Below, piece by piece: positions 4,371-23,399 of a stretch of 36,350 bases of DNA; the first letter of the stretch is position 1, and each line of letters opens with the position of its first letter. A model generated the notes under the pieces. The model was not told the DNA's origin. It saw nothing but the letters and a program-made list of their open reading frames with translations, and ran no database searches. This stretch comes from a virus, in IMG/VR virus record IMGVR_UViG_3300031565_000168, positions 1 to 36,350 of that record, one strand, 5' to 3'. Made by a program: the position numbers and the translations under genes.

Positions 4371-4407
4371 ATATTGCACTCCATAAAAAGCACGAAGGAG
4401 AAGGAAG

Positions 4408-4590: not shown

Positions 4591-4613
4591 TCCTTGAATG
4601 AAGGAGAGAGAAG

Positions 4614-4718: not shown

Positions 4719-4975
4719 TGAAAGAGCAAGAATATCAATCAATGAGTGAGTGGTTAAAAGATGATGCCGTTAAACTTGATTTACCCTCAGAAGAAATCAT
4801 ACAAGCATTGTGTGAAGAAATCGAGAGAAAGAACAACACCATCGAGAAGCAGAACGAGAAGTTTAAACGCATTGAAGAAATTACGCATTATGCCGGAGAC
4901 AGTGCTTGTTTGTTTAAAGCGAATGAGATTGCACAAGAAGCACTCAAACTCACAGAGGAGCAATCACATGGATGA
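4718..4975 (+). CDS. Hypothetical acidic helical protein
   Basis: ORF track 4706..4975. The ATG at 4718 is coupled to the upstream stop. Confidence 0.65.
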   Translation: MKEQEYQSMSEWLKDDAVKLDLPSEEIIQALCEEIERKNNTIEKQNEKFKRIEEITHYAGDSACLFKANEIAQEALKLTEEQSHG

Positions 4976-5405
4976 ACTAAAACCGTATAACTTATGTCAA
5001 AGTCACTCAGCCTTGGTGAAAATAAATCAGTTTCGCGGACATCGTGTAGAATGTATGAGATGCCATTTATCTACAAGTTATTATGATACCGAAGAACAAG
5101 CAATCAAGGCATGGAACACACGCAAGGAGGAGCCAAGTCATGAAGAAGGAGGGAAGATGAGTAAATATACAGAGATAAAAGAGGATTACGGTATAGCGAA
5201 GGATTTTATGGAAAACCCCGAAAACTGTCACTTTGTATCGGAGGGAGATATAAGAAATTCAAATAGGCTCGAAACCCTCATTGACATCATCGAGAAGTAT
5301 CGGGCCTTTATTATCAGGAGTCGTCCATATTGTGATTTTCATTTAGTCGGATACGATGACCTTGAACAAGAGTATATAGACATTCTCAAACTCACAGAGG
5401 AGTAG
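4968..5405 (+). CDS. Lar-family-like (restriction alleviation) N-domain fused to an unknown C-domain
   Basis: MDELKPYNLCQSH...VECMRC...TEEQAIKAWNTR resembles the Lar family consensus (ELKPCPFCG...C..C...eeAi.aWNrR), with the first Cys pair degenerate. The ATG at 4968 overlaps the previous stop (ATGGATGA). Confidence 0.6.
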   Translation: MDELKPYNLCQSHSALVKINQFRGHRVECMRCHLSTSYYDTEEQAIKAWNTRKEEPSHEEGGKMSKYTEIKEDYGIAKDFMENPENCHFVSEGDIRNSNRLETLIDIIEKYRAFIIRSRPYCDFHLVGYDDLEQEYIDILKLTEE

Positions 5406-5409
5406 GGAG

Positions 5410-5610
5410 ATGATTAAGATCAAGGATCTTCAGGAGACAGATATCGGAAGATGGGTAATATATAAAACCGAGTTTGAAAACCAGAGGGGAAGAATCAAAA
5501 GCTGGAATGATAAATGGATATTCATTGTCTATAACTGCGCTGGCGAATGGGATAGATACCAAGATTATACAGCTGCCGCAACAAAACCAGAAGATTTAAT
5601 ATGGGAGTAA
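5410..5610 (+). CDS. Hypothetical protein
   Basis: ORF with SD gaggag upstream, tightly packed in the operon. Confidence 0.65.
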   Translation: MIKIKDLQETDIGRWVIYKTEFENQRGRIKSWNDKWIFIVYNCAGEWDRYQDYTAAATKPEDLIWE

Positions 5611-5613
5611 GAC

Positions 5614-6057
5614 GTGATAGTTCTCTCGATTGATCCAGCCTGGGCGAAGGAGATGGCTTATGCCGTTTTCAGAGACGGGCAGCTCTGTTTCTATGACAAG
5701 TTCAGGACTACGAAAGAGCTCTGCGTCACGAATGCCGATGTCGTCGTCACCGAGAATCCATATCTCGGCGGGGACGCAAAGAAATACTCCTCTCGTGGAC
5801 ATATCGATACTTTCAAGAAGCTATGCTTCGCCGTCGGCATGGTCTCAGTTATAGCTGCGGCTCTGGAAGCAGAGTTTGTACTCGTCCGGCCGCTCGACTG
5901 GAAAACATTCTACTCGTTGACAATCAAGACGCCGGCGAATATCCAGGAGACGATACGGGCTCAACTCACCGGTGGGATCCAGGGCGAGGATATTCAGGAT
6001 GCAATCCTCATCGGCAGGTACTATATAGATCACGTACTCGTGGAGGCGAGAGGGTAA
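5614..6057 (+). CDS. RuvC-like Holliday junction resolvase
   Basis: IVLSIDPAW (catalytic Asp region) and VVVTENPY (Glu) with RuvC-fold spacing. GTG start. Confidence 0.65.
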   Translation: MIVLSIDPAWAKEMAYAVFRDGQLCFYDKFRTTKELCVTNADVVVTENPYLGGDAKKYSSRGHIDTFKKLCFAVGMVSVIAAALEAEFVLVRPLDWKTFYSLTIKTPANIQETIRAQLTGGIQGEDIQDAILIGRYYIDHVLVEARG

Positions 6058-6058
6058 T

Positions 6059-6271
6059 ATGTTAAAGCAATTTATTAAACAGTTATTTTGTCGACATCGG
6101 TGGGAGATCTTCTGGCCCTTCTGGCCGACGATAGGATTTTACATCGAGGAATGTGTGTACTGTAAAAAGCTACGAATAGCATACCGCAAACTGCCTGGGC
6201 ATATTAATTGTAGATGTGCTGTTATTCCAGTCGAAGATGAGGAGGATGAAGGATGTCAAAAAATGAATTAA
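6059..6271 (+). CDS. Cys-rich small protein (zinc-ribbon-like)
   Basis: CRHRW...CVYCKK...INCRC. Confidence 0.6.
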   Translation: MLKQFIKQLFCRHRWEIFWPFWPTIGFYIEECVYCKKLRIAYRKLPGHINCRCAVIPVEDEEDEGCQKMN

Positions 6272-6444
6272 ATATAAAATTAATACCAGGCCAATATTTC
6301 ATTTTAACTCGAATTAATGCCTGTTATAACTGTAAGTGTAAATATCTTGGCGACAGATCTTATGATTGTTATTTGAAATTCATAGAACTTGATTCTGAGG
6401 GCAAATGTAAAAGTTATGAAGAGAAAAAGAAACGATCCCTATAA
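6253..6444 (+). CDS. Cys-rich small hypothetical protein
   Basis: SD gaggaggatgaagg upstream; AT-rich. Confidence 0.55.
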   Translation: MSKNELNIKLIPGQYFILTRINACYNCKCKYLGDRSYDCYLKFIELDSEGKCKSYEEKKKRSL

Positions 6445-6480
6445 AGATACTTCGATAAACGGGAGGTAGGGCGGGTAAAG

Positions 6481-6588
6481 GTGAAAGAGCAATATAACTT
6501 TTGGGAAGGAATGATAGCGGGTTTTGCTATCGGGATGCTTGTCGTTTCTATAATAGTTTTTGTAATAATAAATAATTTAATTAAGTAG
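6481..6588 (+). CDS. Possible 35-aa membrane micro-protein
   Basis: Hand translation gives VKEQYNFWEGMIAGFAIGMLVVSIIVFVIINNLIK. The start is uncertain (GTG 6481 or ATG 6511). Confidence 0.35.
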   Translation: MKEQYNFWEGMIAGFAIGMLVVSIIVFVIINNLIK

Positions 6589-6600
6589 GGAGGGGAACAA

Positions 6601-6801
6601 ATGATTACTTACTCAACGAAATATAACCTGCGGAACTGTCCGCGCTGTGGGCATAGTGTAATGATGTGCCTGGGGGTATATCTTGATTTTTATTGTCCCC
6701 ATTGCCAAACCGGATACGCCGTTCGTGCCGTGGGAAAGAAGAATCGAATAAAGCTCTGGAACAAAATATGGAATCATCGTTGTAAGGGGGGAAACGATTA
6801 A
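6601..6801 (+). CDS. Zinc-ribbon protein, weakly Lar-like
   Basis: CPRCGH...YCPHCQTGYA...KLWNKIWNHR. Strong SD gggagggg upstream. Confidence 0.65.
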   Translation: MITYSTKYNLRNCPRCGHSVMMCLGVYLDFYCPHCQTGYAVRAVGKKNRIKLWNKIWNHRCKGGND

Positions 6802-7780: not shown

Positions 7781-7847
7781 GACCCGTGCTGAGGAGGATG
7801 TCTCACAGATTCGCGTGAGTTGTCCTCTTCGGTGCGGGTCTTTTTTT
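7781..7847 (+). terminator. Long composite hairpin plus T7 tract: rho-independent terminator just upstream of the terminase operon
   Basis: gacccg..gaggagga..ctcac-agattcgc-gtgag..tcctcttc..cgggtc followed by ttttttt. Confidence 0.75.
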
Positions 7848-7863
7848 GTGCTCGGGGAGGGAC

Positions 7864-8325
7864 ATGCAAGAAACCGTTGTTTCGAAAGAGAAACATCCAG
7901 GTGGATCTCCTACAAAATATAACCCTCTATGGCATCCTCAGCTCGTCTTCTGGATGGCAAGAGACGGTCTCACCGACAAAGAAATAGCGAAAAGGCTCGG
8001 TGTCTGTAAACGAACCGTTGATACATGGAAGAATCTATATCCCGAATTCAAGGTAGCCATCAAAGAAGGTAAAAAGCAACCGGATGATCTTGTCGAGGCT
8101 AAACTGTTTCAACGTGCGACCGGGTACTCTTATCCGGAAGACAAGATAATGCAGTATGAAGGTGAGCCGGTTATTGTGCAGACAATCAGACACATTCCTC
8201 CGGACGTAGTAGCACAGATCTTCTGGCTAAAGAATCGCCGGCCGGATCAGTGGCGCGATCGGCATCAAATAGATTTCACCAACAAGCTTGATGAAATGAT
8301 CGAATCCTTTCGAGGGATAAAGTAG
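7864..8325 (+). CDS. terS: Terminase small subunit
   Basis: GGSPTKYNP...LTDKEIAKRLGVCKRTVDTWKNLYPEF...IPPDVVAQIFWLKNRRPDQWRD (HTH plus typical TerS tail). ATG at 7864 behind ggggaggg. Confidence 0.8.
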   Translation: MQETVVSKEKHPGGSPTKYNPLWHPQLVFWMARDGLTDKEIAKRLGVCKRTVDTWKNLYPEFKVAIKEGKKQPDDLVEAKLFQRATGYSYPEDKIMQYEGEPVIVQTIRHIPPDVVAQIFWLKNRRPDQWRDRHQIDFTNKLDEMIESFRGIK

Positions 8326-8328
8326 CGT

Positions 8329-9579
8329 GTGGATTATACAGCGAAGCAACTTGAGATCATACGGTATGAGAATAGAGAACGGCCTCTTATAACGATTTGT
8401 GAGGGCGCGGTACGGTCCGGCAAGACCGTAGTCGACATTGATCTTTTCAATATCCTGATAGCCGAACAGCGCAATCTGAGACATGACTTCATCATCTCCG
8501 GCCATACAATCGGATCGATCGAGCGGAACGTCTTCACCGAATGGGAGAAACGGTGGGGGATCAGAATCAAGCTCGATCAGCATAACCGATTTGATTTGTA
8601 CGGTAACAAGGTCAACTGTTTCGGAGCTGATAAGTCAGACAGTTATCAGCACATGACAGGAATGACCGGATATGGCTGGTATGCCAACGAGGTCACGTTA
8701 CAGCACCGGAACACGATCATTGAGGCTTTTAACCGTTGCAGTGGCGAAGGTACGCGGATCCTTTGGGACACAAACCCGGATTATCCTGAGCACTTTGTCA
8801 AGACGGACTATATCGCCAAATCGGGAGAACGGCTCTCAAGTAATCGGATCCGGATCAAGTCCTGGCACTTTCAGCTCGAGGACAATACGTTCCTCGGACC
8901 GGAGTATATCGAGAATATCAAAGCCACGACTCCGCTGGGGATGTGGTACAACCGGCGAATCAAAGGGGAATGGGTTGCAGCCGAAGGCATTGTTTACGAG
9001 GGCTGGGATCCGGATGTTCATGTTATCGATCCTTTTGAGATCCCGGCAAGCTGGTCTCGAGTACGGGGTATCGACTGGGGCTTTGTCAATCCATTCGTCT
9101 GTCTGTGGGGTGCGCTTGATCCGGACGGACGGCTTTACATTTATGATGAATACTATCAGACGAACACGCTGATCCGGGATCATGCGAAAGAGCTCTACAA
9201 ACGAGCGAATTATAAAGACAAGCAGGACCGGATACAGAAACGAAAATACTTGTGGACTATCGCTGATCATGACGCTCAGGATAACGCGGAGCTCCGGGCT
9301 TTCGGGATCCAGACGAAGCCGGCGCAGAAAGACGTACTTACCGGGATTCAGAAAGTCGCTGAGCGGCTCATTGTTCGGCTGGATGGAAAGCCTCGGATTA
9401 TGATCTTTCGGACTTGTCCGAATCTGAGACGCGAGACAGGAAATTACCGCTGGCTGGAACAGAAGGACGGGAAGCCAATGAAAGAGGAGCCATTGAAAGT
9501 AGACGATCACGGTCCGGATACTTTGAGATACATGATCATGCAGCTCGACCATGAAAAACCACACGGGATCCATGTATGA
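8329..9579 (+). CDS. terL: Terminase large subunit
   Basis: Walker A GAVRSGKT, an ATPase-then-nuclease layout, and a position between TerS and the portal. Confidence 0.9.
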   Translation: MDYTAKQLEIIRYENRERPLITICEGAVRSGKTVVDIDLFNILIAEQRNLRHDFIISGHTIGSIERNVFTEWEKRWGIRIKLDQHNRFDLYGNKVNCFGADKSDSYQHMTGMTGYGWYANEVTLQHRNTIIEAFNRCSGEGTRILWDTNPDYPEHFVKTDYIAKSGERLSSNRIRIKSWHFQLEDNTFLGPEYIENIKATTPLGMWYNRRIKGEWVAAEGIVYEGWDPDVHVIDPFEIPASWSRVRGIDWGFVNPFVCLWGALDPDGRLYIYDEYYQTNTLIRDHAKELYKRANYKDKQDRIQKRKYLWTIADHDAQDNAELRAFGIQTKPAQKDVLTGIQKVAERLIVRLDGKPRIMIFRTCPNLRRETGNYRWLEQKDGKPMKEEPLKVDDHGPDTLRYMIMQLDHEKPHGIHV

Positions 9580-11693
9580 AATTACGAGAACGGATCAACA
9601 ACTTTTTCGATATTGCAGACGGGAAAAGAGAGATTATGAAACAAGAGAAAGGGATCGGTGCTGGCTTTCAGCAGTTCACAACGGTACTCCCTCCCGGAGA
9701 TACCTTCCTGCATTATCTGAGCCTGGCAAGTGATGAGGATAATCCGCAGTATATCCGGATCCGGGATCCCTACATAGATAATTCTTGGGTATATGCCGCA
9801 ATTCAGGTCATGGCTCAGAACATGGCCCAGGTCCCGTTTAAACTTTACAACGGCGAAAACGAGATAGAGAAGCCGGCAGGACAGTATGCCTGGCTATGGA
9901 AGCTCTTTAATAACGTCGGACCATACATGAATCGGTATGCGCTGATAGAAAGTATCCCTCTATGGTTATCGATGCGGGGTGAGTGTTTCTGGTGGCTGAT
10001 ACGAGAGAATGTGACTGGGAAGATCCCGTCACGTATCCGGATACTCGAACCGGAATATCTGAGAGAGAATGTCCGGGATGGCGAGGTGGTCCAGTGGACA
10101 TATCAAGCTCCGGATAAATCGAAGATCCCCATTGACCCGAAAGATATCATACAATTCAAATATTACAATCCATATAACCGCTTCCGGGGACTCTCCCCTC
10201 TGACAGCGACCCTCCTGGGTCTGCATATCGATTACTCTGCAGCAGCACTTAATTATTACTTCTTCAACAACAATGCCGCAATGGGCGGATTTATAACCAC
10301 CAAATCCGAAACAATCACAGATCCAGAGAAGGATGCTCTTGAACTCCGTATTGCGAAAAGGCACAGAGGCCTGAGTAAGACGGGGCTTATGGGAGTGCTG
10401 TCTCATGGATCGTATTTCACGCCGGTAACTATAGCTCAGAAAGACATGGAATATATCGCTCAGCGCAAATGGAGCCGGGCTGAAGTTTTTGCAGTGCTCG
10501 GTGTGAATCCTGCTCTTTGTGGGATCCTTGAGGATGCAAGTATCAAGAGTAATGTACGAGAACAGAAGAAAGCACTTTTTGAAAACAATCTCATTCCTAA
10601 AATGTGTCTGACCGAGGACGTGTTGAGAACAGAGTTCTTTGAACGTGAGAAGCTGATCGGCTTGTCGGGGAAGTTCGATCTGGAACAGGTCGAGGCCCTC
10701 CGCGAGGGTATGGCTGAGAAACTCAAGCAGGCAATGATTCTCTCGAAATTAGGTTTCACAAGGAACGAGATCAATAAACGATTTGAACTCGGTTTCGAGG
10801 ATGTGCCCTGGGGTAATGTGTGGTGGACTCTCGGTAATATGATGCCGGTCGGGGACGACGGATCCCAGGCTCTGCAAAGACAACAGCAACTGCCGGCACA
10901 ACAGGCTTCAGTTAAGCTCCTGCCGGAAGTAAGTCATGAATATGTGAAAATGACGCAGATCTGGAAAGCCGTGATACGGCTCGGCGAACCTGTCGAAAAG
11001 GAAATGGCCGCGAAACTGATGGACTACTTTTACAACCTGCGTTCCGAGGTCCTGGAAAATATCTTACAGCGCCAGGGATATAAAAGCGTAAAGGCCGCCG
11101 CGATCGAGGATGATTTGATCTTTGACATATCAGCCGCTACGGAACTCTTACGGAAAAATATCTTTCCCTATGTGGAACAGGCCTATGAGCTCGGTATTGA
11201 GACGCTTGCTTCCGGGGACATTGCATACGGCCTGACTAATCCGAGAGCGATGTCGGCTCTCGCAAAACGGGCGAAGGATCTCGAAGAAATCAACGTGACA
11301 GTCGCAAAGCAACTCAAGTCAGAATTCAAACCTATACTCGAGCGCGGCATCGAGGAGGGGCTTTCTTACGACGAGATCGCCGGGGATCTCGCTAATAGCG
11401 CACGCAATACTTTTAATAATGCCCGGGGTCGGGCAAAGACTATCGCTCGAACCGAAGTAAACGGGGCAATGAGTCAGGCTCGCTATGATCTAATGCAGGA
11501 GATCGATACTCCTAAACATAAATGGGTAAGCGCGAGAGATGGTAATGTCAGGCCTTCTCATTATGCCATTGATGGACAGATCGTTGCAGTAGGCAAGAGG
11601 TTTTCGAATGGACTGGAATATCCGCACGATATAAGCGGCGACCCATCGGAAACTATTAATTGCCGCTGTATTACAGTACCGGTGGAGGATTAA
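9576..11693 (+). CDS. Portal protein fused to a MuF / SPP1 gp7-like head morphogenesis domain
   Basis: 705 aa directly after TerL. The C-terminus GRAKTIARTEVNGAMS...VRPSHYAIDGQIV...INCRCI is a MuF-type motif set. Confidence 0.85.
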   Translation: MKLRERINNFFDIADGKREIMKQEKGIGAGFQQFTTVLPPGDTFLHYLSLASDEDNPQYIRIRDPYIDNSWVYAAIQVMAQNMAQVPFKLYNGENEIEKPAGQYAWLWKLFNNVGPYMNRYALIESIPLWLSMRGECFWWLIRENVTGKIPSRIRILEPEYLRENVRDGEVVQWTYQAPDKSKIPIDPKDIIQFKYYNPYNRFRGLSPLTATLLGLHIDYSAAALNYYFFNNNAAMGGFITTKSETITDPEKDALELRIAKRHRGLSKTGLMGVLSHGSYFTPVTIAQKDMEYIAQRKWSRAEVFAVLGVNPALCGILEDASIKSNVREQKKALFENNLIPKMCLTEDVLRTEFFEREKLIGLSGKFDLEQVEALREGMAEKLKQAMILSKLGFTRNEINKRFELGFEDVPWGNVWWTLGNMMPVGDDGSQALQRQQQLPAQQASVKLLPEVSHEYVKMTQIWKAVIRLGEPVEKEMAAKLMDYFYNLRSEVLENILQRQGYKSVKAAAIEDDLIFDISAATELLRKNIFPYVEQAYELGIETLASGDIAYGLTNPRAMSALAKRAKDLEEINVTVAKQLKSEFKPILERGIEEGLSYDEIAGDLANSARNTFNNARGRAKTIARTEVNGAMSQARYDLMQEIDTPKHKWVSARDGNVRPSHYAIDGQIVAVGKRFSNGLEYPHDISGDPSETINCRCITVPVED

Positions 11694-11696
11694 AAA

Positions 11697-12740
11697 ATGA
11701 AATTAGAGAAAGCAATTTTGAATTGTGAAATAAAGAAGACCGGAGAGAACGAATATGAATTCATCATGTCGGATGAGATCATCGACCGGGACAATGAGGT
11801 AATACTCGTTGACGGCTGGGATACTAAGAATTTCAAGAAGAACAATATCCTCATGTGGGGACATCTGCATAATATTCCAGGGATCGGGGTCGTCGGGGCC
11901 ACAGTAAAAGAAGACGGTAAATTCAAAGCGAAACGAGTTCGATTCGCCTCACCCGGAATCTACGAGCTCGCTGATGTCGTGCATGGCCTAGTCGATGATG
12001 AGGTGTTAAAAGCGGTCTCGGTCGGGTACATACCAAAGGAGCGTGAGTATCCGTCTCAGGATGATGACGATAAAGCTGGCAAGAAAAAGAAGAAGCCGAG
12101 AGTCATCACGACAAAAGCCGAACTATATGAACTCAGTATTGTAAATGTCGGTGCGAATCCGGACGCACTCCGAGCAGTAAAGTCAGCAGAAGAGGAAGCG
12201 GCAAAGGATTTTATCGGTGATGAAAAGCAGTTTCTCCAAGAAGAGAAGGGCGAGGATTTCGATGTCGAAGAGAATCCCTATCCGAATGAGCACGCCTGCC
12301 GACTCCGGGATCCTGGCGATTTTGACAAGGATACCTTCAAACGATATACCCGCGATCATGAAGGCAAAGAATATGATATCATCGCCGGAAAGCTCAAAGG
12401 CAAAACCAAAATGACTGAGCAGGCGTATCGGTACAAGAAGAAAACATGGAAGGCCTCGGAAGCAAAGAAGCATTGCAAATCACATGATGGCACTTTTGAG
12501 GCTGCAAGTGAAGATACAATTTCTACAGAGGAGAGTGATCTCTTAACGGAGATGAAAAACACTCTGAATAACCTCTGTGAAAAAATTGATCACATGGAAA
12601 CGCTTTTACAGAAAGAGCAGAAACCGGGAAAGTATGAGGGGCTCCTGGCAGGGACCAAACAGGTCGACAAACCTGCAGAAAAACAGCAGCTACCACTACA
12701 CGGACCGGCAACACTCGGAAAATTCATACACAAGGAGTAA
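11697..12740 (+). CDS. HK97-family prohead serine protease with a C-terminal scaffold-like extension
   Basis: MWGHLH...AVSVGYIP...ELYELSIVNVGANPDA (S78-like). The C-terminal half carries YPNEHACRLRDPGDF and charged helices. Confidence 0.8.
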   Translation: MKLEKAILNCEIKKTGENEYEFIMSDEIIDRDNEVILVDGWDTKNFKKNNILMWGHLHNIPGIGVVGATVKEDGKFKAKRVRFASPGIYELADVVHGLVDDEVLKAVSVGYIPKEREYPSQDDDDKAGKKKKKPRVITTKAELYELSIVNVGANPDALRAVKSAEEEAAKDFIGDEKQFLQEEKGEDFDVEENPYPNEHACRLRDPGDFDKDTFKRYTRDHEGKEYDIIAGKLKGKTKMTEQAYRYKKKTWKASEAKKHCKSHDGTFEAASEDTISTEESDLLTEMKNTLNNLCEKIDHMETLLQKEQKPGKYEGLLAGTKQVDKPAEKQQLPLHGPATLGKFIHKE

Positions 12741-12745
12741 ACAAG

Positions 12746-14017
12746 ATGCCTAAAAACATTCTTGAAATGATAGAAGGGATGCGTTCGAAAGGAGAGGAAG
12801 CCACAACTGAGGATCTCTGGGGTGTCGTCGAACAGATGCAGAAGAACACCGACGATTACCAGACCAAAAAAGAGGCTGAAGTCGAGGCACTCAATAAGAC
12901 CATCAGCTCGATCATGGAAGCGTCAGTGAAAGAACCGGATGAGGAAGTGAATCTCACCCCGGAACAGAAGAGCGGTAAGTTCCTCATGGCTGCTTCCAAT
13001 GGCGACATGAATAGTATCGAGAAGTATGGCGGACGGTTCTCCGGAAAGGGTGATCCCTGGGACGACAAGTCAGATTGGAACAAGTTTATAGGTATGACCG
13101 AAGCCCAGGAGAAGGCAGCTCTCGGGACTGTGCTCCGAGGAGATGCGACGACAGGATCTTATCTCGTTCCTTCGGAGTGGTATACCGAGGTAATGAGAAT
13201 CGCGACTCAGGCGAGCCAGATGATGGGGAAAGTGACAGATATCCCTATGACAGCTCGGACGATGTATTTGCCTGCTGGCGGAACAGGAATAACCCTTGCA
13301 TGGCCGGCTGATGAGACACAAGCAAAGATCGAAAACAGTCCGACATTCGAGCAGGAGATACTCACTGCGAAGACGTGTGCAGGCTGGATAACCTGGACGG
13401 AAGAGCTGGAAGAGGACAGCATCATCAATCTCGTGTCGTATTTTCAGACGCTCTACGGCGAGGCCTGGGGAGGCGAGTTTGATAAGCAGGTGCTATATTC
13501 AAACACTGCCCCCTTCGTCGGTATCGCCTATGACGCTGGATGCTCTATCCGGAACATGGGGGCCGGTAAGACCTCGTTTGCAAACGTCACATTCGATGAC
13601 CTGATCGACATGGAGAACGATATCTCCACTGCCGGCGGAGAGAATGCGCTCAACAGATCCATGTATATCATGAGCCGGTATGTCTTCAACGTGCTTCGCA
13701 AACTGAAAGACGATGACGGTGAGCCGATCTACCAGAAACCGGCGGACGGTGTTCCGGCCACAATTTACAGCCGGCCGTATGTCATCAGCGACCAGATGCC
13801 GGGTAGCACCCTGGATGCAGCCGACACTCCTTTCCTGATTCTCGGAAACCCGAAATTTGTAGCTCATGGCGAGAGGGTTGGAATGGAGTTCAAGATTTAC
13901 CGCGACACGGTTCGTAACATCGATTATGACCAGATCTTTCTCCGGTTCAGGGTCCGACAGGCTTTCATCGTTGCGGTCGAAGAGGCTTTCTCAGTTCTCG
14001 AAACTGCAGCGAGTTAA
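12746..14017 (+). CDS. Major capsid protein (HK97 fold family)
   Basis: Position after the protease, size of 423 aa, an N-terminal delta-like helical region, and TGSYLVPSEW-type motifs. Confidence 0.85.
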   Translation: MPKNILEMIEGMRSKGEEATTEDLWGVVEQMQKNTDDYQTKKEAEVEALNKTISSIMEASVKEPDEEVNLTPEQKSGKFLMAASNGDMNSIEKYGGRFSGKGDPWDDKSDWNKFIGMTEAQEKAALGTVLRGDATTGSYLVPSEWYTEVMRIATQASQMMGKVTDIPMTARTMYLPAGGTGITLAWPADETQAKIENSPTFEQEILTAKTCAGWITWTEELEEDSIINLVSYFQTLYGEAWGGEFDKQVLYSNTAPFVGIAYDAGCSIRNMGAGKTSFANVTFDDLIDMENDISTAGGENALNRSMYIMSRYVFNVLRKLKDDDGEPIYQKPADGVPATIYSRPYVISDQMPGSTLDAADTPFLILGNPKFVAHGERVGMEFKIYRDTVRNIDYDQIFLRFRVRQAFIVAVEEAFSVLETAAS

Positions 14018-14099: not shown

Positions 14100-14696
14100 A
14101 TGTTTGTACGAGCTTATGCAAGCGGATTTGTAGTAAAGGATTATCACACAGAGACCGCCGATACAGTCATCGATGAGGAAATCCCGGGAAGAGACGGACA
14201 AAGACTGGCGCTGGTATCACTGAATTATCTGGCCGCAGCTACCGCGCACACATTGTCAGTCCTGCATTGTGGAAGTGTGGCCGGATCAAGAAACAGCGCC
14301 TCTGCTGCTGCTGCCGCCGCACAGAAGGTGTTAAACGTGACGACTGCACCGACAGGTCCGGACGGCGCTGCCGCTGCTACACCTGATATCATTGCATACC
14401 AGGTGGACACTGGAGCGTGGGAGTTTAACCTGGTCGCAACGATACTTGTCAATGCAATAACTCTCACAACCAATATCGCTGTTCCGGTATTGTCCGGAGC
14501 AAAGGTGAGGATATTCGGGGTCGTCGGTGATGGGTACTGTTTCAATACTCATCTTACGGCGGGCGTTGTGACCAACTTTGACAATACGCTGTTGGCACTC
14601 GCACCGCACATGGGAGATCCGTTGTATACGACCATCGACAATGCTACCAATGCTGGCTTTCAGAACAACATGGTGTTCGCATACATCAACAAGTAA
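14100..14696 (+). CDS. Ala-rich virion-module protein of unknown function (decoration or cement candidate by position)
   Basis: SD agaggtg upstream; lies immediately after the major capsid protein. I recognise no motif. Confidence 0.7.
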   Translation: MFVRAYASGFVVKDYHTETADTVIDEEIPGRDGQRLALVSLNYLAAATAHTLSVLHCGSVAGSRNSASAAAAAAQKVLNVTTAPTGPDGAAAATPDIIAYQVDTGAWEFNLVATILVNAITLTTNIAVPVLSGAKVRIFGVVGDGYCFNTHLTAGVVTNFDNTLLALAPHMGDPLYTTIDNATNAGFQNNMVFAYINK

Positions 14697-15170: not shown

Positions 15171-16124
15171 ATGGGATTCCATCCGTCGATCGACACAGTA
15201 AACGCATTAGTTACCCTGGACGATGCGAAGGCTTTTCTAGGCGTATCATCGAGAGAGGCAACAAAAGAGATAACAACGATAACCTGCGAGGCCGATGGAG
15301 CCGGATCATTGAATAATACATATTGGCTACTCTATTCGGTGGCTACCGATTATTACGTTTGGTATGACGTAAACCTTGCAGGCGTTGATCCTGCGATAAC
15401 TGGAAAAACCGGAATAAAAGTATCTATTGCTACGGATGCGACTGCCGCTCAAGTTGCGACTGCTACGGCTGCGGCCATTAATGCATTAAGTGATTTCTTG
15501 GCCGGGGCTGTTGTCGCAGTAGTGACGGTCACGAATGCCGCTACCGGCGATGTTGATGATGCGATCGACGGGGATACGGGCTGGACAAATGCCTGGGTTA
15601 CTACACAACAAGGGGTAGACATAAAATATACATTGAACTTCTATATCAACAATGCGAGCTGGTTCTGTAACAACTATACTCACAGGCTCCTTTTATCAAG
15701 ATCATTGACAGAATACTATAGCGGAGACGGGATGAATTCATTGCTGGTCAATAACTATCCGATCACGGCAATAACTCATGTCTATGATGATCTTGCCCGA
15801 GCATACGGAGCCGGTACTGAGATCACCCTTACTGATCTAGTCTATTTACCTGAGGGACTGGCCTATAAGATCGTATACGATGGCGGAGTATTTACCAAGG
15901 GTATCAAGAATCTCAAGGTTGAATATACGGCCGGCTATGCTACGGTCCCCTGGGATTTGCAGGAAGCGGCACTCGAGCTCTGCGCGTTCTACTGGGATAA
16001 TTTCGAGAACAAGCTTTTCGGTAAGGTGGCGATGAGCATGGCTGACGGAAGTATACGACTCGCGACGACCGGGATCCCCAAAAGTGTATTGACCGTGCTC
16101 GAACACTACAGAAAGAAGTGGTAA
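15171..16124 (+). CDS. Head-tail connector (gp6-like adaptor) carrying a roughly 117-aa inserted domain
   Basis: N-terminus VTLDDAKAFLGV is typical of gp6-like connectors. Residues 32-148 are homologous to an insert in the tail tube protein. Confidence 0.7.
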   Translation: MGFHPSIDTVNALVTLDDAKAFLGVSSREATKEITTITCEADGAGSLNNTYWLLYSVATDYYVWYDVNLAGVDPAITGKTGIKVSIATDATAAQVATATAAAINALSDFLAGAVVAVVTVTNAATGDVDDAIDGDTGWTNAWVTTQQGVDIKYTLNFYINNASWFCNNYTHRLLLSRSLTEYYSGDGMNSLLVNNYPITAITHVYDDLARAYGAGTEITLTDLVYLPEGLAYKIVYDGGVFTKGIKNLKVEYTAGYATVPWDLQEAALELCAFYWDNFENKLFGKVAMSMADGSIRLATTGIPKSVLTVLEHYRKKW

Positions 16125-16556
16125 ATGGGAATAGAGGTTCGGCTGGACTACAAAGAGGTCAGGAAGATGCTCAAGGCGATCGGTAAAGAACTACCCCGGT
16201 TCCTTATAAAGCCTCTGTATCGCGCAGCAGATTTTATCAGGGGAGTATCGCAGGAACATTATTTGAGAGGTCCCCGACCTGATCGACTTGCGGTTGTGAG
16301 TAGTCGCCTTTTCGGAAGTCTTCGAGCCGAAGCGAAAGTCACCGGAAAGGGCGCGATAGGTATAGTCAAGGCCAATGCTCACAGCGATCAGGGTTTTGAC
16401 TATCCAGCTTATTGGGAAACAGACGGATCGGCTCACGGGGGACCAAGACCTTTTTTGAAGCCAGCACGAGATGAACATCCGGATGAATGGATGAGGGTTT
16501 TTAATAAAGCCTTTGAGGAGCGATTTAACGCATGGCAAAAAGGGAAGCAATTCTAG
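16125..16556 (+). CDS. HK97 gp10-like neck / tail-attachment protein
   Basis: GGPRPFLKPARDEH motif and its position. Confidence 0.6.
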   Translation: MGIEVRLDYKEVRKMLKAIGKELPRFLIKPLYRAADFIRGVSQEHYLRGPRPDRLAVVSSRLFGSLRAEAKVTGKGAIGIVKANAHSDQGFDYPAYWETDGSAHGGPRPFLKPARDEHPDEWMRVFNKAFEERFNAWQKGKQF

Positions 16557-16975
16557 TCAATACGGTAACGACGCTCGGAAATATTACTGTTCCAGGCGGA
16601 TACAACAACAATATCGGGCTCGTTACCAGGGAACCGAAAGATTGGGTAAATCTCAAACCTTCCGAATTGCCAGCGGCATGGGCGTTATGGGCTCCGGATG
16701 TGAGAGAGTCGAAAGACGTGCAGGGACATAATATCCTCAGCACATTGACGCTCAGGATCCGGGGCATAGTATATGCAAAGACAGCCCTAGAAACCGAGCT
16801 TAATAAGTTCACCGAGGACGTGGAAAAGGCGATGATGGTAGATGAAACAAGGGGCGGTAATGCCATGTATACGAATCCGGGAACGGTAACTCCTTTTAGA
16901 GGTCCGACACAATATCATTTAATTTTCGATTTTGATTTCGAGGTCAAATATCAATACCTGAGGGGAAGTCCGTAA
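16532..16975 (+). CDS. Neck / tail-completion protein (position-based)
   Basis: ORF between the gp10-like gene and the major tail gene. Confidence 0.55.
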   Translation: MAKREAILVNTVTTLGNITVPGGYNNNIGLVTREPKDWVNLKPSELPAAWALWAPDVRESKDVQGHNILSTLTLRIRGIVYAKTALETELNKFTEDVEKAMMVDETRGGNAMYTNPGTVTPFRGPTQYHLIFDFDFEVKYQYLRGSP

Positions 16976-17265: not shown

Positions 17266-18612
17266 ATGGGAATCTATACAGGATCAGGTGCAGCAATCGC
17301 CGAGTACGCCCTAGAGACGGCATACGGAGATGAGACGGTTTTTGATGTAGCACTTGAACTCGTCGAAGAGGGTATGAAGGAAAATACGGAACCCCTAAGA
17401 TCCCCCATTCCTATGGGGAGTCGGGCTCATGCAACGTATCACCAGGGATCGAAGGAAGCCGGAGGACCTATGAAGATCATCGCGAATCCCGACAATCTCC
17501 CCAAAATACTTTACGCGATACTCGGCATAGAAGGGAACGCAACCCAGGTTGAGGGAGCGACAGCAGAGGTCACGGAGATCACCTGCGAGGCCGATACTGA
17601 CGGAAGTTTGAGCGGTGAGTATATCACGTTCAATGCGCCAGCGTTACCATTTTATGCTTGGTTTGATGTAGACGACAGAGGGTCGATTGATCCGGATCTA
17701 TCGGGTAAGACCGGGATCGCCGTTGGAATCACAGCAGGTGATGCAGCGGCGGATGTAGCGGCGGCAATGGAAACTGCAATCCATGCGAATGCTAATTTCA
17801 CGGCTGGTTCGGCGGCGGCGAAGGTAACGATCACGAATGTTGCCAATGGAACTGTGCTGGAAGCGACGAACGGAAATACGGGTTGGGGAACAGCTCCAAA
17901 TGTCACAACAGATGGATCGGGCGGGTTAGCCTACGATCACCATTTCACACCCGTAGCTGCCGGCGGAGATCTTCCGAGCCTTCATGTCGGGATCGACAAA
18001 ACCGGATCCCAGTATTCTTATCCAGGCGTCGTAATCAACACGGCAACCTTCGAGTTCACAAAGGGGGACTATCTGTATGTAACCCTTGAGACACTCGCGC
18101 AGAAAGAGAAAGATGATCAGGATAATCTGCAAGGAATCGCTCTCAGTACAAAGCTTCCGTATATCGGCGATTACGTGAGTCTCGAAGTCGGGGGAGGTGC
18201 AGTGGCTTACGGGATCTCAGGAAGCCTGACGATCAACAACTTTCTCGATGAGGAAGGATCGAAACGATGGACGGGGACCCGTTATCGAGCGGAACCGAGG
18301 CCTCAGACCTTCATGGTGACGGCGAATATTGAGATCGAGTGGGAAGCTGGAAGTGATGCTCTCCGGGATGCTATCCGGGACAATAGTGATCAGCATATCG
18401 ATTTCGTTATCACACACGAAACAGCGATCGAGGGTGATCATTACTACACAACGACAATCCATATTCCGACGGCGAAGATCATCGGTGATCTTCCGGTGCT
18501 CAGTACCCGAGATCGGATCCCGTTCTCATTAGTAGTTGAGGGCATATACAATGCAACGAATCTCATGAAGATTACGCATCGGGATGGTTTGGCGGCAAAA
18601 TGGAGCGCATAG
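17266..18612 (+). CDS. Major tail (tube) protein with a roughly 120-aa inserted domain
   Basis: Largest ORF directly before the G/GT chaperones and tape measure. Residues 100-219 are homologous to the connector insert. Confidence 0.75.
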   Translation: MGIYTGSGAAIAEYALETAYGDETVFDVALELVEEGMKENTEPLRSPIPMGSRAHATYHQGSKEAGGPMKIIANPDNLPKILYAILGIEGNATQVEGATAEVTEITCEADTDGSLSGEYITFNAPALPFYAWFDVDDRGSIDPDLSGKTGIAVGITAGDAAADVAAAMETAIHANANFTAGSAAAKVTITNVANGTVLEATNGNTGWGTAPNVTTDGSGGLAYDHHFTPVAAGGDLPSLHVGIDKTGSQYSYPGVVINTATFEFTKGDYLYVTLETLAQKEKDDQDNLQGIALSTKLPYIGDYVSLEVGGGAVAYGISGSLTINNFLDEEGSKRWTGTRYRAEPRPQTFMVTANIEIEWEAGSDALRDAIRDNSDQHIDFVITHETAIEGDHYYTTTIHIPTAKIIGDLPVLSTRDRIPFSLVVEGIYNATNLMKITHRDGLAAKWSA

Positions 18613-18635: not shown

Positions 18636-19046
18636 ATGAAAATTAAAGCAGGGAATTTTCGCTCTACTAGAAGAACGAAAGAGGTCGACATCTCTGAATT
18701 TGTTGATCCGAAAGTGGTAGAGCAGTTCGGCGGGAAGGTTCTTATTGAGCTGAAAAAACTCAAGACACAAGAGCGGGATGATAATACCGGGATCCTATCA
18801 AGGTATGCAGACTTCGATAAGACGACCCGAAAGGGTCAATTCACGGATCCTAAATGGGTCCATGAAAGCCGAGTCCAGATGTTACTCGTTGGAGTAAACA
18901 AAGATCGGACAGATTTCCCGTTCGAGACTTGGGACGAGAAATTTCTTGAAGAAATAGACGAGTCCTGTCCGGAACTCATCGAATATCTCAGTGACGAACT
19001 GGACGAGCTCAACCGCCCTTTGCCGCCGAAGAACTCGAAGAAATAG
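18636..19046 (+). CDS. Tail assembly chaperone (gpG-like)
   Basis: Acidic helical 136-aa protein immediately before the tape measure. A slippery site lies near its 3' end. Confidence 0.75.
   Translation: MKIKAGNFRSTRRTKEVDISEFVDPKVVEQFGGKVLIELKKLKTQERDDNTGILSRYADFDKTTRKGQFTDPKWVHESRVQMLLVGVNKDRTDFPFETWDEKFLEEIDESCPELIEYLSDELDELNRPLPPKNSKK
19016..19022 (+). promoter_or_regulatory. Candidate -1 programmed frameshift heptamer C_CCT_TTG
   Basis: X_XXY_YYZ in the G frame. The -1 frame is open from 18995 to 19324. Confidence 0.6.
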
Positions 19047-19324
19047 TCAGTTCAACCAGACGATCTTTTCGAGGTCATCCTCCAGCAACCCCTGAGGCAT
19101 ATCGGGCAATGATGAAATGGGGGTCATATATTGAGATGTTCGATGTACTTCGAGATGCAAACGGAGACTTTCGGCACTATCCGGAGAGCGGAGGATATTA
19201 CGATCAGGATGCTGGCATAATGAACATTTTACAGGTAATCCGACAGGAGTTTAAAAATATAAAACGTCAACGAGAGAAGGAATGGGAGCAAAAGCAAAGA
19301 TCTTCATCACTGCCGAGGATCTGA
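19022..19324 (+). CDS. Frameshift extension giving the gpGT-like chaperone (with 18636..19022)
   Basis: The -1 frame has no stop from 18995. The track ORF 19109..19324 is its distal part and lacks a convincing SD of its own. Confidence 0.6.
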   Translation, partial: AAEELEEIVSSTRRSFRGHPPATPEAYRAMMKWGSYIEMFDVLRDANGDFRHYPESGGYYDQDAGIMNILQVIRQEFKNIKRQREKEWEQKQRSSSLPRI

Positions 19325-21291
19325 CCGGTCCCGGATTGAAGAAGGTCCAACAATCATTTCAAAAAGTAGGCTCACAACTCTCGAGTATAGGGAGAAAGAT
19401 GAGCCTATTTATTACAGCTCCCCTTGCGATACTCGGTGGTGTAGCTCTAAAAGCAGCTGCGGATTTTGAGAAACAACAGGTTGCTTTTGAGACAATGCTC
19501 GGAAGTGCTGAGAAAGCTGGAAATCTCCTGAAAGATATTATAGATTTCAGTGCAAAGACCCCATTCAAACTCCCCGGATTGCAGGATGCAGCAGCCCGAC
19601 TTCTTGGATTCGGAATCGAAGGAGAAAAAGTTGTAAATACTCTGAACATGCTCGGTAATGCGGCCCAAGGCGATCAGGCTCGCCTTGATCGTTTGACTCT
19701 TGCATTCGGTAAACTTCGGGCAAAGGGCAAGGCTACTCTCGAGGAGCTGAATATGTTCCTCGAGGCCGGAGTCCCGATCCTCGACGAGCTCTCCCGTATG
19801 TATGGCGTAACGACTCAGGATATGTTTGAAATGATCAGTAAAGGAAAAATCGGGTTTGAAGATGTAAACAAAGCATTAACTAATCTAACGACCGGGACAG
19901 GAATGTTCGCCGGGATGCTTGAGAAGCAAAGCAAAACTCTAAGTGGTCTGTTCTCTACGATTCTCGATAATCTAAAACTCCTCGGTATGGAAATAATGCA
20001 GACTATCTTACCGGCGATTAAAGAATTTGCAACAAAGGCATTGAAACTTATAGAAAGACTTCGCGGTATGAATGAACGTACAAAAAAACTCATTGTTATA
20101 GTGGCAGGATTAACGGCAGTCGTAGGACCGCTCATGATAGCATTGGGAGGTTTGGTTACTATGCTAAACTTTTTAGCAGCGGCAGGTGGTCCGGTTATGT
20201 GGGTCATTGCGGCTATAGGGCTATTAGTAACAGCGGGGATCCTGCTATATACCCATTGGGAAAAGGTCAGTAGATTTCTCGAGCAAATCTGGGTAAATAT
20301 CGCAACAACTGCACAACAGATTTTTCAAGCTGTTAAAATCGCTGTATTGCAACCTCTAATCGATATTTTAAATGGGTTACGTTTTATAAGAGAACTCTTC
20401 GGAGGAGAAGCGACCAAGATAATAAATGCAATACAGACTCTTACAAATGCACAAGTTGAATCTGCAATCACAATAAAAGAATTGGGAGACAGAAGAAGAG
20501 AAGCGAATAAAACAGCCAAAGCATTACGGGAGGAGGAGAAAAAACTCGCTGAAGTACAGGCTGAAATGAACGAAGTATTGATTACTGCGCCATCTCTAGT
20601 AGAAGATTATACTGCCAAAATAGACGATCTTACCGAAGCCGAGGAGGAGCTTCTACATAACATTAATCATACGAGCGAAAGGCTACACGCTGCTGATAAT
20701 GCAATGTGGGAGGCATCTCTAACGACAGATAAATATGCCGAGGCCATGCAACGGCTTGGAGATGAAGCGAGGCGGCTGAATACGAAGTTACCTGAAATCA
20801 CTGATAATACAGAAAGGCTGAAAGAAGAAGTTCTTGAAACGGCCGACGTGATGGAGAAGACCTGGGGCCGATCCTGGGAGATCATGGGAGATCAGACAAA
20901 AAGCGGAGCAGATAAAATCAAAGAAATTATGAAGAATATGTTTGTCTACTTTCTTGAAGCAGAGGCAAAAAAACTACTCGTACTGGCTGCAGAAGCTTTT
21001 GCAGCTTTTAATATAATCGGTGGTACGGGATTCATGGCAGCAGCCGCCCTCGCCTATGGCGCAATCGGTTTTATACAATCACTTGCCCAGGGTGGTATCA
21101 CAACAGATGAGACGCTTGCACACTTGCACCCGAACGAAGCAGTAATACCCCTTGATAGTCCCCAGGGGCGCCGGATCATGGGTCCGACGATCAACGTTTA
21201 CAATTACATCTCCGGGAGCGTACAGACAGAGAAGGATCTCGCGGAGACGATAGCCGAAGAGATCGGTCGACAGGGGTATTCGGTAACATGA
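19282..21291 (+). CDS. Tail tape measure protein
   Basis: FSAKTPFKLPGLQDAAARLLGFG...LTLAFGKLRAKGKATLEELNMFLEAGVP (TP901-type core), a hydrophobic central segment and coiled coils. Confidence 0.9.
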   Translation: MGAKAKIFITAEDLTGPGLKKVQQSFQKVGSQLSSIGRKMSLFITAPLAILGGVALKAAADFEKQQVAFETMLGSAEKAGNLLKDIIDFSAKTPFKLPGLQDAAARLLGFGIEGEKVVNTLNMLGNAAQGDQARLDRLTLAFGKLRAKGKATLEELNMFLEAGVPILDELSRMYGVTTQDMFEMISKGKIGFEDVNKALTNLTTGTGMFAGMLEKQSKTLSGLFSTILDNLKLLGMEIMQTILPAIKEFATKALKLIERLRGMNERTKKLIVIVAGLTAVVGPLMIALGGLVTMLNFLAAAGGPVMWVIAAIGLLVTAGILLYTHWEKVSRFLEQIWVNIATTAQQIFQAVKIAVLQPLIDILNGLRFIRELFGGEATKIINAIQTLTNAQVESAITIKELGDRRREANKTAKALREEEKKLAEVQAEMNEVLITAPSLVEDYTAKIDDLTEAEEELLHNINHTSERLHAADNAMWEASLTTDKYAEAMQRLGDEARRLNTKLPEITDNTERLKEEVLETADVMEKTWGRSWEIMGDQTKSGADKIKEIMKNMFVYFLEAEAKKLLVLAAEAFAAFNIIGGTGFMAAAALAYGAIGFIQSLAQGGITTDETLAHLHPNEAVIPLDSPQGRRIMGPTINVYNYISGSVQTEKDLAETIAEEIGRQGYSVT

Positions 21292-23399
21292 GCCTTTTAC
21301 ACATATCAGACGCTTTTAAGACTTACCTCAAAGAGCCTGCAGGTGATAAGAAGTATCTCGCCTATGTTGATTTCCGACAACAGCTCTATCCTCCACAGAC
21401 CGGACATGGATTAACCTTTCACCCCTTCCCCGACAACAAGATCGACCGGGGGCATTGCGAAGCTACTACCGAGCCAATGGCGAATGATGAGACGGTCGCT
21501 ATCACGACTAATGCGACATGGGTTCGGACCTCCGCACAGCATTATCGGGGAAATTATTCATGGCTAATGACGAAGACCTCCGCGAGCGGCGCGGGTGACG
21601 CTCTTGTATACCTTGTCGATGGCACGGTCACGACGGATCTCCACGGATTCGAAGCCGGTAAAAAATATCGTTATAGTCTCAGGGCCCGGACCTCGGATCA
21701 TGTAAATTACCGGTTCCAGGTATATGAATATTCCGGGGGGGCATGGAACGAGCTCGTAAGCGATGCACTCACAGCCTCAGATGCATGGGAAGAGGTCAAC
21801 GGAACTTTTGAACTTGAGCCGAATACAACGGGTATTTATATTCGGAACTATATAACAAGCGTGGCGTCCATTGCCGAAACCGCCAATGTAGACGAGATCA
21901 AGATCGACGAAGAGAATCAAACCGGCTCCCATGTCGGATACTTCGGCAGCCTTGCGACAGATCCTCATCCGCAATGGTGTCTCGATCTTCCTGATTATTT
22001 CACCTTCTGGATTCGATGCAAACCATATTTTCCTTACGATACAGCCGATACACAAGCTTTATTTAGTTGGTATATCTCGGCGACGATCAAATTGTATCTG
22101 GCTTATGCTCCGACGGCAGATAAGTTTTACATCATGTGGGAGGACGATGGGGCTGTTGCGGGATTAGGCAGTCAACGGTACGACGACGGCTCGACATACA
22201 GCGATTTAAACCAATGGATTGATATTGTAGGCGTTGTTGATCTTCGCGTGGGGGGACGGACAACGGGATCATCCCTCTGGACGGATTGGGTCAGGCGTGC
22301 TGATACGTGGAGTGTAAACCATGATCTAAAGACGAGCAATTTTCCGTTACTCAATATTGGACATTATCATTCGGGCTGGGAATGGAACGGCGAGATCGCA
22401 TTCTTTAAAATATGGCCGAATACAATTGTATCCGATGCCGATATCGGTGCACACTTCCGTACCGTTAAAGACGAGGAGATATATTTCCCATTCAACGGTC
22501 ATGGGGTCGGACATACTCGCTGTAATGTATCTGATAAAGTTTTGAACATGAATCTTGAGCTCACGAAGAAATCGAGAGCCGATGCATGGATTGCAAACTG
22601 TGGCGGATTAAATCTTGACAATCATGATGGTATTTTCTCAGACGATCAGTACGCCGCCTTCGACGCGAGCCTTGAACAGTACAACGGTACGGCGGCCCAG
22701 GCATATATGCAGCAGCGCTGCGGAATCGAGATTGAGGCACTGTACGAAGCCGAAGTAGCGGTCGAACCCTTTTTCACCGGACGGATTGACGACAAAGGAT
22801 TCGCTCGCAAATCTGATGCCGGGAAGTCTCGCGTCAATCTTGGATTCACCGATATCATCGATGAGATGCAGAATGTCGGGATTGAGAAATCGGTCTATTA
22901 CGAAGATTATAAATTCTGTGATCCTAATAATGAATCACAATCTCTCGTACATCTATTTGCACGGTTGGCGACGGCACCGAAAGTATTTAATTTTGCGAGT
23001 AATTCGAGTTTTGAGAATGCCGCGATCGGGAACAGTTGGGCGAATACGGATCTTTCGTCCTTGACCAGACAGGCGGGCGGTCTATTCGGGACATACCTGG
23101 GCCGGATGGCCTATGACGCTGTCGCCGGTGGTACTCAGGATGCTCACGCGACTATTATGTTTGACGAAGAAACAAAGTTGAATGTCGGAGAAAAGTTTAC
23201 CTTTTCGATCTATTTGAAAAGCACGGTAGCCTGTAGCTGTAAAATCAGCATCGATGAAAATGATTCAGTCGGAATGAATGATAGTACCGAAGCAAATTAC
23301 GCACTCGTCGGGGGCGAGGGCTGGATACCTTTTTCTGTTACTCATGAAATAACTGATCCGGATTCGGATCGGCTAATCATACGTGTTGAGATGGATTGA
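21288..23399 (+). CDS. Distal tail / receptor-binding protein with two CBM4_9-like (carbohydrate-binding module) domains and a LamG (ConA-like lectin) domain
   Basis: First gene after the tape measure. The lectin-fold calls are by eye: aa 55-200 and 590-703 look CBM-like, aa 240-395 look LamG-like. Confidence 0.7.
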   Translation: MSLLHISDAFKTYLKEPAGDKKYLAYVDFRQQLYPPQTGHGLTFHPFPDNKIDRGHCEATTEPMANDETVAITTNATWVRTSAQHYRGNYSWLMTKTSASGAGDALVYLVDGTVTTDLHGFEAGKKYRYSLRARTSDHVNYRFQVYEYSGGAWNELVSDALTASDAWEEVNGTFELEPNTTGIYIRNYITSVASIAETANVDEIKIDEENQTGSHVGYFGSLATDPHPQWCLDLPDYFTFWIRCKPYFPYDTADTQALFSWYISATIKLYLAYAPTADKFYIMWEDDGAVAGLGSQRYDDGSTYSDLNQWIDIVGVVDLRVGGRTTGSSLWTDWVRRADTWSVNHDLKTSNFPLLNIGHYHSGWEWNGEIAFFKIWPNTIVSDADIGAHFRTVKDEEIYFPFNGHGVGHTRCNVSDKVLNMNLELTKKSRADAWIANCGGLNLDNHDGIFSDDQYAAFDASLEQYNGTAAQAYMQQRCGIEIEALYEAEVAVEPFFTGRIDDKGFARKSDAGKSRVNLGFTDIIDEMQNVGIEKSVYYEDYKFCDPNNESQSLVHLFARLATAPKVFNFASNSSFENAAIGNSWANTDLSSLTRQAGGLFGTYLGRMAYDAVAGGTQDAHATIMFDEETKLNVGEKFTFSIYLKSTVACSCKISIDENDSVGMNDSTEANYALVGGEGWIPFSVTHEITDPDSDRLIIRVEMD

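Follow-up and report, generated by a model that had tools for sequence, protein, structure and literature searches.

Phage structural proteins can bear accessory domains of the immunoglobulin (Ig)-like type, namely Big_2, I-set and FN3 (Fraser et al. 2006, as cited in PMC9230969). Such decorations, an example being that of the T5 tube protein pb6, are small and dispensable, are joined promiscuously to proteins of the tube, capsid, fibre and other parts of the virion, are common to cellular surface proteins, and have weak surface adhesion as their presumed role. In flagellins, the outer D2/D3 domains form a variable, exposed insert between conserved N- and C-terminal polymerisation regions, and in the tail sheath protein gp20 of phage Milano residues 91-203 make up the sheath extension domain (SED), which is external (PMC10811340). 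Here we describe a domain of about 120 residues that occurs twice, each time as an internal insert, in a 36,350-nucleotide (nt) stretch of viral DNA (IMG/VR record IMGVR_UViG_3300031565_000168, positions 1 to 36,350; hereafter the window). The window is a temperate phage or prophage with a siphovirus-type genome, and the domain lies in its head-tail adaptor and in its tail tube protein.

Ig-like decorations are beta-sandwiches that are added to phage proteins at the C-terminus. In contrast, the present domain is predicted to have an alpha/beta fold with a 13-residue helix and is added by insertion into internal loops, apparently including a loop of its own. Promiscuous and dispensable decorations that virions share with the surface proteins of cells are already known. 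New here are the family of the fold, the mode of insertion, the apparent nesting of the domain within itself, and its occurrence in flagellar hook and junction proteins as well as in proteins of giant viruses.

Two copies of one inserted domain

The initial annotation, made from the sequence alone, had proposed that one Ala/Thr-rich segment interrupts both the head-tail connector and the major tail protein (15264-15614 and 17563-17922), and that the two segments share a 15-nt string. This picture held up throughout. BLASTP with compositional adjustment aligned adaptor residues 30-157 with tube residues 98-227 (59 of 130 positions identical, 45%; E=8e-24) and found no second significant segment between the two proteins. 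A profile hidden Markov model (HMM) scan moved the boundaries by only a few codons, and both copies are indeed rich in Ala (19%) and Thr (14-15%). Searching the window by tblastn with each excised domain and by a six-frame profile-HMM scan revealed these two copies only. The features concerned are as follows (iE, independent E-value; aa, amino acids).

15171-16124, + strand: head-tail adaptor (gp6-like/HCP-type), 317 aa, carrier of copy 1, matched by phrog_442
15255-15620, + strand: domain copy 1, adaptor aa 29-150; profile HMM iE 2.4e-47, profile positions 2-121
15258-15383, + strand: N-part of copy 1, three-stranded, ITCEADxxGSLNxxYW...YYVWYDV; N-part HMM iE 1.4e-21
15282-15296, + strand: 15-nt string ACCTGCGAGGCCGAT, encoding TCEAD, in copy 1
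15384-15620, + strand: C-part of copy 1, beta-alpha-beta-beta...beta, DPAxxGKTGIxV...VTVTN...TGW...QG; C-part HMM iE 1.8e-27
17266-18612, + strand: tail tube protein, 448 aa, two-domain and P74-26/T5 pb6-like, carrier of copy 2, matched by PF18906
17557-17919, + strand: domain copy 2, tube aa 98-218; profile HMM iE 6.1e-37, profile positions 3-120
17581-17595, + strand: the same 15-nt string ACCTGCGAGGCCGAT in copy 2

Along a profile of about 122 positions, the window copies carry the family motifs GSLNxxY(F/W), YYVW, DP, G(K/R)TGI, VT(I/V)TN and T.QG. A 15-mer common to both copies arose in 1 of 2000 shuffles. Because the copies are only 55% identical at the nucleotide level, the string is not a mark of recent duplication; the same codon is used at 23 of the 56 aligned identical residues, and the string is a by-product of the conserved TCEAD motif, with no sign of recent duplication or gene conversion.

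Both carriers are what the initial annotation had taken them to be. The major tail protein is a tube protein, as it matches PF18906 (Phage_tube_2; 1.2e-15, 58.3 bits against a cut-off of 27), and its AlphaFold2 model matches the P74-26 tube (8ed0; E=2.6e-15, target-normalised TM-score (TMt) 0.63), with further fold matches to SH-Ab15497 and to DT57C and T5 pb6 (both E about 1e-9). The connector matches phrog_442 (head-tail adaptor; 8.6e-19) over aa 155-316 only. PF24163 scores 19.1 bits in it, under the cut-off of 27, but is annotated in almost all close homologues of the protein, most of them 194-198 aa long. The gene order, major capsid protein - 198-aa open reading frame (ORF) - adaptor - Neck1 - tail terminator - tube, fits the adaptor identity.

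In the tube, the insert sits in the first of the two tube domains, in the turn just after helix 79-86. Among 23 tube homologues the block is present in 16 (446-455 aa) and absent from seven (325-327 aa), in which a clean gap of 131 alignment columns (104-234) leaves a three-residue turn; two of the insert-less proteins, P0012 and P0013, are 75% and 74% identical overall to the window tube. The adaptor gives the same result. An insert-less homologue, P0182, is 81% identical to the window adaptor over the shared part, and in short adaptors such as this one, including 198-aa homologues, some 10 residues (SQDDTDSKEK in P0182) occupy the place of the ~120-residue block, in the loop that joins the first helix, NALVTLDDAKAFLGV, to the second, LNFYINNASWFCN. 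Because close relatives without the block exist, it is an insertion that lies outside either core fold and is dispensable for assembly, and not an integral part of the connector or tube core, an outcome that the initial annotation had allowed for.

The two insertions do not always go together. In the syntenic relative L003 the tube (451 aa) carries the block and the adaptor (194 aa) does not. In L004, a phage more distantly related, the block is present both in the tube and, at another site (residue ~78), in an adaptor of the PF05135 type, and the L013 adaptor, nearly identical to that of L004, shows the same arrangement.

An unnamed family and its carriers

AlphaFold2, run on the excised domain with a 65-sequence alignment, returned a compact alpha/beta structure (predicted local distance difference test (pLDDT) 97.8, predicted TM-score (pTM) 0.91). 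The N-part comprises strands 7-11, 24-28 and 33-40, and the C-part comprises strand 53-59, helix 65-77 and strands 82-87, 90-95 and 115-119. The domain is thus predicted to fold as an autonomous unit of about 120 residues. Since a block of this length replaces a three-residue turn, its ends must lie close together, and the termini are probably adjacent. In the full tube model (pLDDT 77), the strand and helix order of copy 1 is recovered at the expected offsets within the insert.

The initial annotation had not recognised the domain, and had considered an Ig-like or BACON-type identity as the outcome that would make it a known family. Scans of Pfam-A and NCBIfam with the domain matched no family. 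The only Pfam match was weak and under its cut-off (BigA_beta, E=0.0077, 16.5 bits), and no Ig-like (Big, I-set, fn3, He_PIG) or BACON Pfam model appeared at E ≤ 10. PHROG matches were weak, the best being phrog_28344 (function not assigned; 6e-5). Single-sequence and profile searches of the PDB by sequence gave nothing significant, and a Foldseek search of the PDB gave nothing at E ≤ 1e-3. Ig/Fab chains were found as fold matches with a probability of at most 0.07 and a query-normalised TM-score (TMq) below 0.3. The best PDB fold match was the phage Milano tail sheath (E=0.026, probability 0.98, TMq 0.50, root-mean-square deviation (RMSD) 6.3 Å), and the flagellin outer domain 4nx9 (P. aeruginosa FliC) gave a weak one (E=0.38, probability 0.54, TMq 0.46). 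Among the predicted viral structures of BFVD, two proteins are genuine family members (identity 30-37%, E from 1e-11 to 1e-14, TMq 0.87-0.91), both without functional annotation: A0A481YRU0 of Marseillevirus LCMAC101 and A0A6J5KUV1, an uncultured Caudovirales 'Baseplate protein J-like' protein. A literature search on this domain or on nested insertion turned up no relevant description. The family to which the domain belongs is large and is unnamed in Pfam, NCBIfam and PHROGs, and we are highly confident in the identity and anatomy of the domain as an unnamed insertable surface domain.

The match to phage Milano deserves comment, as its SED is likewise an external domain of ~110 residues inserted in a tail polymer subunit. 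Besides the fold match, the domain profile matches gp20 weakly, in the C-part only (E=0.4), over residues 120-190, which fall within the SED, and phrog_165 (sheath) matches the domain weakly (E=0.007) over sheath-profile positions 117-182, the stretch that corresponds to gp20 120-190. Because none of the three signals is significant alone, the RMSD is 6.3 Å and only the C-part is involved, homology is not established, and we take the Milano SED as a lead to a distant relationship and not as evidence of membership. True family members do occur in other sheaths.

An exhaustive HMMER profile search of 1.84 billion cluster representatives returned 3,486 of them at E ≤ 1e-3, 2,015 at E ≤ 1e-10 and 203 at E ≤ 1e-30. 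A word-indexed search gave 5 matches, which reflects the sensitivity limit of that search and not rarity. Blastn and tblastn against 50,697 phage records matched neither the domain region (DNA) nor the tube protein. The best 150 of the 3,486 matches were inspected. The carriers identified in the analysis are of many kinds:

tail tubes
two head-tail adaptor families
tail sheaths, tail fibres, a collar fibre and a collagen-like tail protein
baseplate J and a T4 gp23-type capsid protein
a capsid protein of the nucleocytoplasmic large DNA virus (NCLDV) type; a Pfam scan of ten candidates did not identify which protein
small proteins of 200-215 aa adjoining T4-like neck genes
flagellar hook protein FlgE (TIGR03506, 303 bits)
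hook-associated (hook-filament junction) protein FlgL (TIGR02550, 278 bits), with two copies
an MtrC-like outer-membrane cytochrome
FG-GAP, Laminin_G_3, He_PIG and Big_1 proteins

Many carriers have 2-15 matched stretches, and their lengths reach 5,471 aa. The carriers are subunits of large extracellular assemblies, together with adhesin-like giants. With thousands of phage, giant-virus and bacterial proteins carrying this unnamed domain, naming it and solving its structure would annotate viral 'dark matter'.

The flagellar carriers offer a direct parallel to flagellin D2/D3. In FlgE (533 residues) the insert occupies 202-325 and is flanked by the conserved N- and C-terminal segments, a place that we take to be that of the outer D2 domain, and family members hold a D2/D3-like position in FlgL/flagellin-like proteins. 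The likeness is one of placement: the fold match to 4nx9 is weak, and there is no sequence match between flagellin D2/D3 and the present domain.

Scanning genomes with two narrow peptide patterns from the subfamily alignment, which favours close relatives, gave eight loci carrying the subfamily closest to the window copies. Seven of the eight are in metagenome-assembled genomes (MAGs) of Desulfobacterota, a taxonomic picture that is biased because the patterns were so narrow. Most of the Desulfobacterota loci encode an insert-bearing FlgE or FlgL, which may be a clue to the host phylum of the phage. The MAG loci with FlgE (one copy) or FlgL (two copies) are:

L005, 5395-7002
L007, 5380-6981
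L008, 5480-7093
L011, 5521-6939

The sole hit outside Desulfobacterota is L012, where positions 4369-6711 encode a 780-aa fibre-like protein with domain copies on a contig labelled as a Thermoplasmata archaeon.

The composition of the family is distinctive. The mean net charge is -8, 96% of 282 copies are acidic, and the window copies stand at -11 and -14. Lys and Arg make up 2.7% of family residues and Ala, Thr, Val, Gly and Ser together 58%; such a composition is typical of flagellins and S-layer proteins. The Cys of TCEAD is conserved in the subfamily that includes both window copies, each of which has one Cys. A second Cys, in an F.CPAPGAA motif, is present in copies of P0008, P0051, P0081 and L007; two Cys occur in 26 of the 282 copies, and these could form an intradomain disulfide.

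Exchange and nesting of the copies

The adaptor copy shares 70% identity with P0051, 68% with the inserts of PF05135-type adaptors (P0207 and P0031), 57-63% with the tube inserts of other phages and 61% with the insert of a Thermodesulfobacteriota FlgE (likewise 61% with the FlgE insert of L007), but only 47% with the tube copy of its own phage. The window tube copy is 52-85% identical to other tube copies, and in L004 the adaptor and tube copies are 57% identical. On these values the two window copies represent lineages of long standing that have evolved apart, one of the adaptor type and one of the tube type. The adaptor type has passed from one adaptor family to another, entering other insertion sites on the way. 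The high identity between the adaptor copy and the hook-protein copy also offers a concrete case in which to study how domains might be exchanged between viruses and the motility organelles of hosts. As the origin of the two copies, recent duplication within the genome and gene conversion were considered and are ruled out, given 55% nucleotide identity and nearer relatives in other genomes.

Across the window tube and its homologues P0007-P0029, the block has come and gone. In a tree of the core, the insert-less P0012 and P0013 fall within an insert-bearing clade, and the insert-less P0014 and P0019 are sister to the insert-bearing P0011. With insert-less tubes scattered in this way, at least three losses or gains of the block are required. 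The insert tree conflicts with the core tree, grouping P0010 with P0024, P0008 with P0017 and P0020 with P0027, and therefore points to cassette exchange at a fixed tube site. Both comparisons would indicate repeated, precise loss or gain, together with swapping, of a cassette at one position.

The domain also appears to accept itself. It splits into the N-part (~42 aa) and the C-part (~78 aa), which are found as strings of the form N^nC^n: NNCC 13 times, NNNCCC nine times, NNNNCCCC twice and NNNNNCCCCC once. Of the carriers with adjacent N-parts, 31 of 58 are perfectly balanced. The break between the parts falls exactly in a loop, between GxG and VDP, and the equivalent points in the window are 15383/15384 and 17682/17689. 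Nested carriers, all outside the window, include P0053, P0048, P0061, P0066, P0110, P0037 and P0114. The pattern is what would be expected if copies had been inserted into copies, Russian-doll fashion. As it tolerates insertion in tight turns of diverse folds, and apparently in itself, the domain is a candidate scaffold for loop display, and a candidate for the designed decoration of phage tails or flagella.

Possible roles, and the genome around the carriers

We hypothesize that the domain projects from its host protein as a knob, with its ends side by side. Adaptor rings of the HK97/SPP1 type are dodecamers, and at the neck the adaptor ring would bear its knobs as a collar. In tube folds, a helix such as 79-86 faces outward, and an insert that follows this helix by a few residues, in the first tube domain, would form an outward-facing knob. 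The P74-26 tube subunit consists of two tube domains, with three subunits per trimeric, pseudo-hexameric ring (PMC10034513). T5 pb6, the other best fold match, also builds rings of this kind. Because the window tube is of this type, the tail would bear knobs all along, three to each ring. The virion would in this way acquire an acidic shell rich in Ala, Thr and Ser.

Such a shell could act as an accessory decoration, making weak, multivalent and reversible contacts with polysaccharide or with other envelope or matrix material; lateral contacts that stiffen or protect the polymer would be a secondary role. We propose decoration because the domain is dispensable, because long arrays of it occur in adhesin-like giants, and because the proteins at the tail tip are carbohydrate-directed. 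The last point refers to two genes downstream of the tube:

21288-23399, + strand: 703-aa protein whose C-terminal end is a CBM_4_9 carbohydrate-binding domain
25856-28111, + strand: beta-helix spike, 751 aa, right-handed beta-helix

These are likely to be the receptor-binding proteins, and they suggest that the receptor is a polysaccharide. The initial annotation, too, had considered adhesion or display as a possible role. Taken by itself, an adhesion-type function is argued by analogy and remains a tentative proposal, to which we give slightly less than even weight; the combined description of an insertable surface domain with an adhesion-type decoration role seems to us moderately probable.

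Several observations weigh against this proposal. Exposure on the virion is read from the indel pattern and the tube-fold topology, and the confidence of the full tube model is moderate, with a pLDDT of 62-85 across the insert. A lectin-like or enzymatic signature, which might have indicated a ligand, was not found in the domain. Between phages, adaptor-type copies resemble one another (68%) more than they resemble the tube copy of their own phage (47%), and tube copies are alike among themselves (63%). This clustering by type hints at position-specific roles, which a purely generic decoration leaves unexplained.

The strongest competitor, which we regard as possible although rather unlikely, is structural cement: the knobs would touch each other or neighbouring subunits, inside a ring or from ring to ring, and build an outer lattice that makes the tail and neck stiffer or protects them. 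Outer domains do likewise in some flagellar filaments and in the Milano sheath, where a disulfide between subunits (Cys47-Cys182; PMC10811340) involves the SED. In favour of this account, every carrier is a polymer subunit, the best structural matches, weak as they are, are external domains of sheaths and flagellin, and the TCEAD Cys is conserved in the subfamily of both window copies. However, that Cys is the only one in each window copy and has no evident partner, close relatives assemble without the domain, and long tandem arrays are found in monomeric, adhesin-like giants.

Less probable again is a shield, in which the insert would mask tube and adaptor surfaces from defence sensors or proteases, or prevent sticking to charged particles. 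A strongly acidic surface poor in Lys and Arg would suit such a task, and the frequency with which the cassette is gained, lost and swapped is reminiscent of an arms race. Tube proteins are also known triggers of DSR2, and solved DSR2-tube complexes are among the distant fold matches of the tube model. This evidence is circumstantial, however, and flagellar and adhesin carriers have no obvious link with phage defence.

We are more doubtful still of a flagellum-related, homotypic module, through which the virion would dock on, or mimic, the flagellar surface of probable Desulfobacterota hosts by like-with-like contact. It would account for the adaptor copy being nearer to the Thermodesulfobacteriota FlgE insert than to its own tube copy, and for the seven Desulfobacterota loci, most with insert-bearing FlgE or FlgL. 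Yet a Desulfobacterota host is a presumption, the taxonomic bias may be an artefact of the two peptide patterns, and self-association of the domain is an assumption. Moreover, the phage has conventional receptor-binding candidates in the CBM_4_9 protein and the beta-helix spike, and the domain is also present in many non-flagellar proteins. The broader form of this idea, a mobile, self-nesting cassette exchanged between phage virion proteins and Desulfobacterota hook and junction proteins that lets the phage dock on or pass for a flagellum, is in our estimate just as improbable.

Finally, the notion that the resemblance is an artefact of Ala/Thr-rich composition or the product of recent duplication or gene conversion, for which the biased composition and the shared 15-mer might speak, can be set aside in view of the compositionally adjusted BLASTP score, profile E-values of 1e-37 to 1e-47, a highly confident fold prediction, the low nucleotide identity and the closer kinship of each copy to relatives in other genomes.

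The remaining genes of the window place the adaptor and tube in the following setting.

189-2780: SbcC-like ATPase
3717-4370: replication initiator
4761-5405: Lar-like restriction-alleviation protein
7846-8325, + strand: small terminase
8329-9579, + strand: large terminase
9576-11693, + strand: portal fused to a C-terminal Mu-F-like (minor head) domain (PF04860 + PF04233)
11697-12740, + strand: prohead protease
12746-14017, + strand: HK97-fold capsid protein
14100-14696, + strand: Ala-rich ORF, 198 aa, between the capsid and adaptor genes
16125-16556, + strand: Neck1 / tail completion
16532-16975, + strand: tail terminator
18636-19046 and 19109-19324: small ORFs between the tube and tape-measure genes, at the usual site of the tail assembly chaperone pair
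19282-21291, + strand: tape measure
30364-31470, minus strand: tyrosine integrase

The Ala-rich ORF at 14100-14696 was matched by nothing in Pfam and PHROG scans, and tblastn and the profile scan of the window showed no kinship between it and the inserted domain. It may be a head decoration or cement protein. ORFs of 200 aa and 240 aa hold the same position in L003 and L004, respectively, and the fusion of the portal to a Mu-F-like domain recurs in L003.

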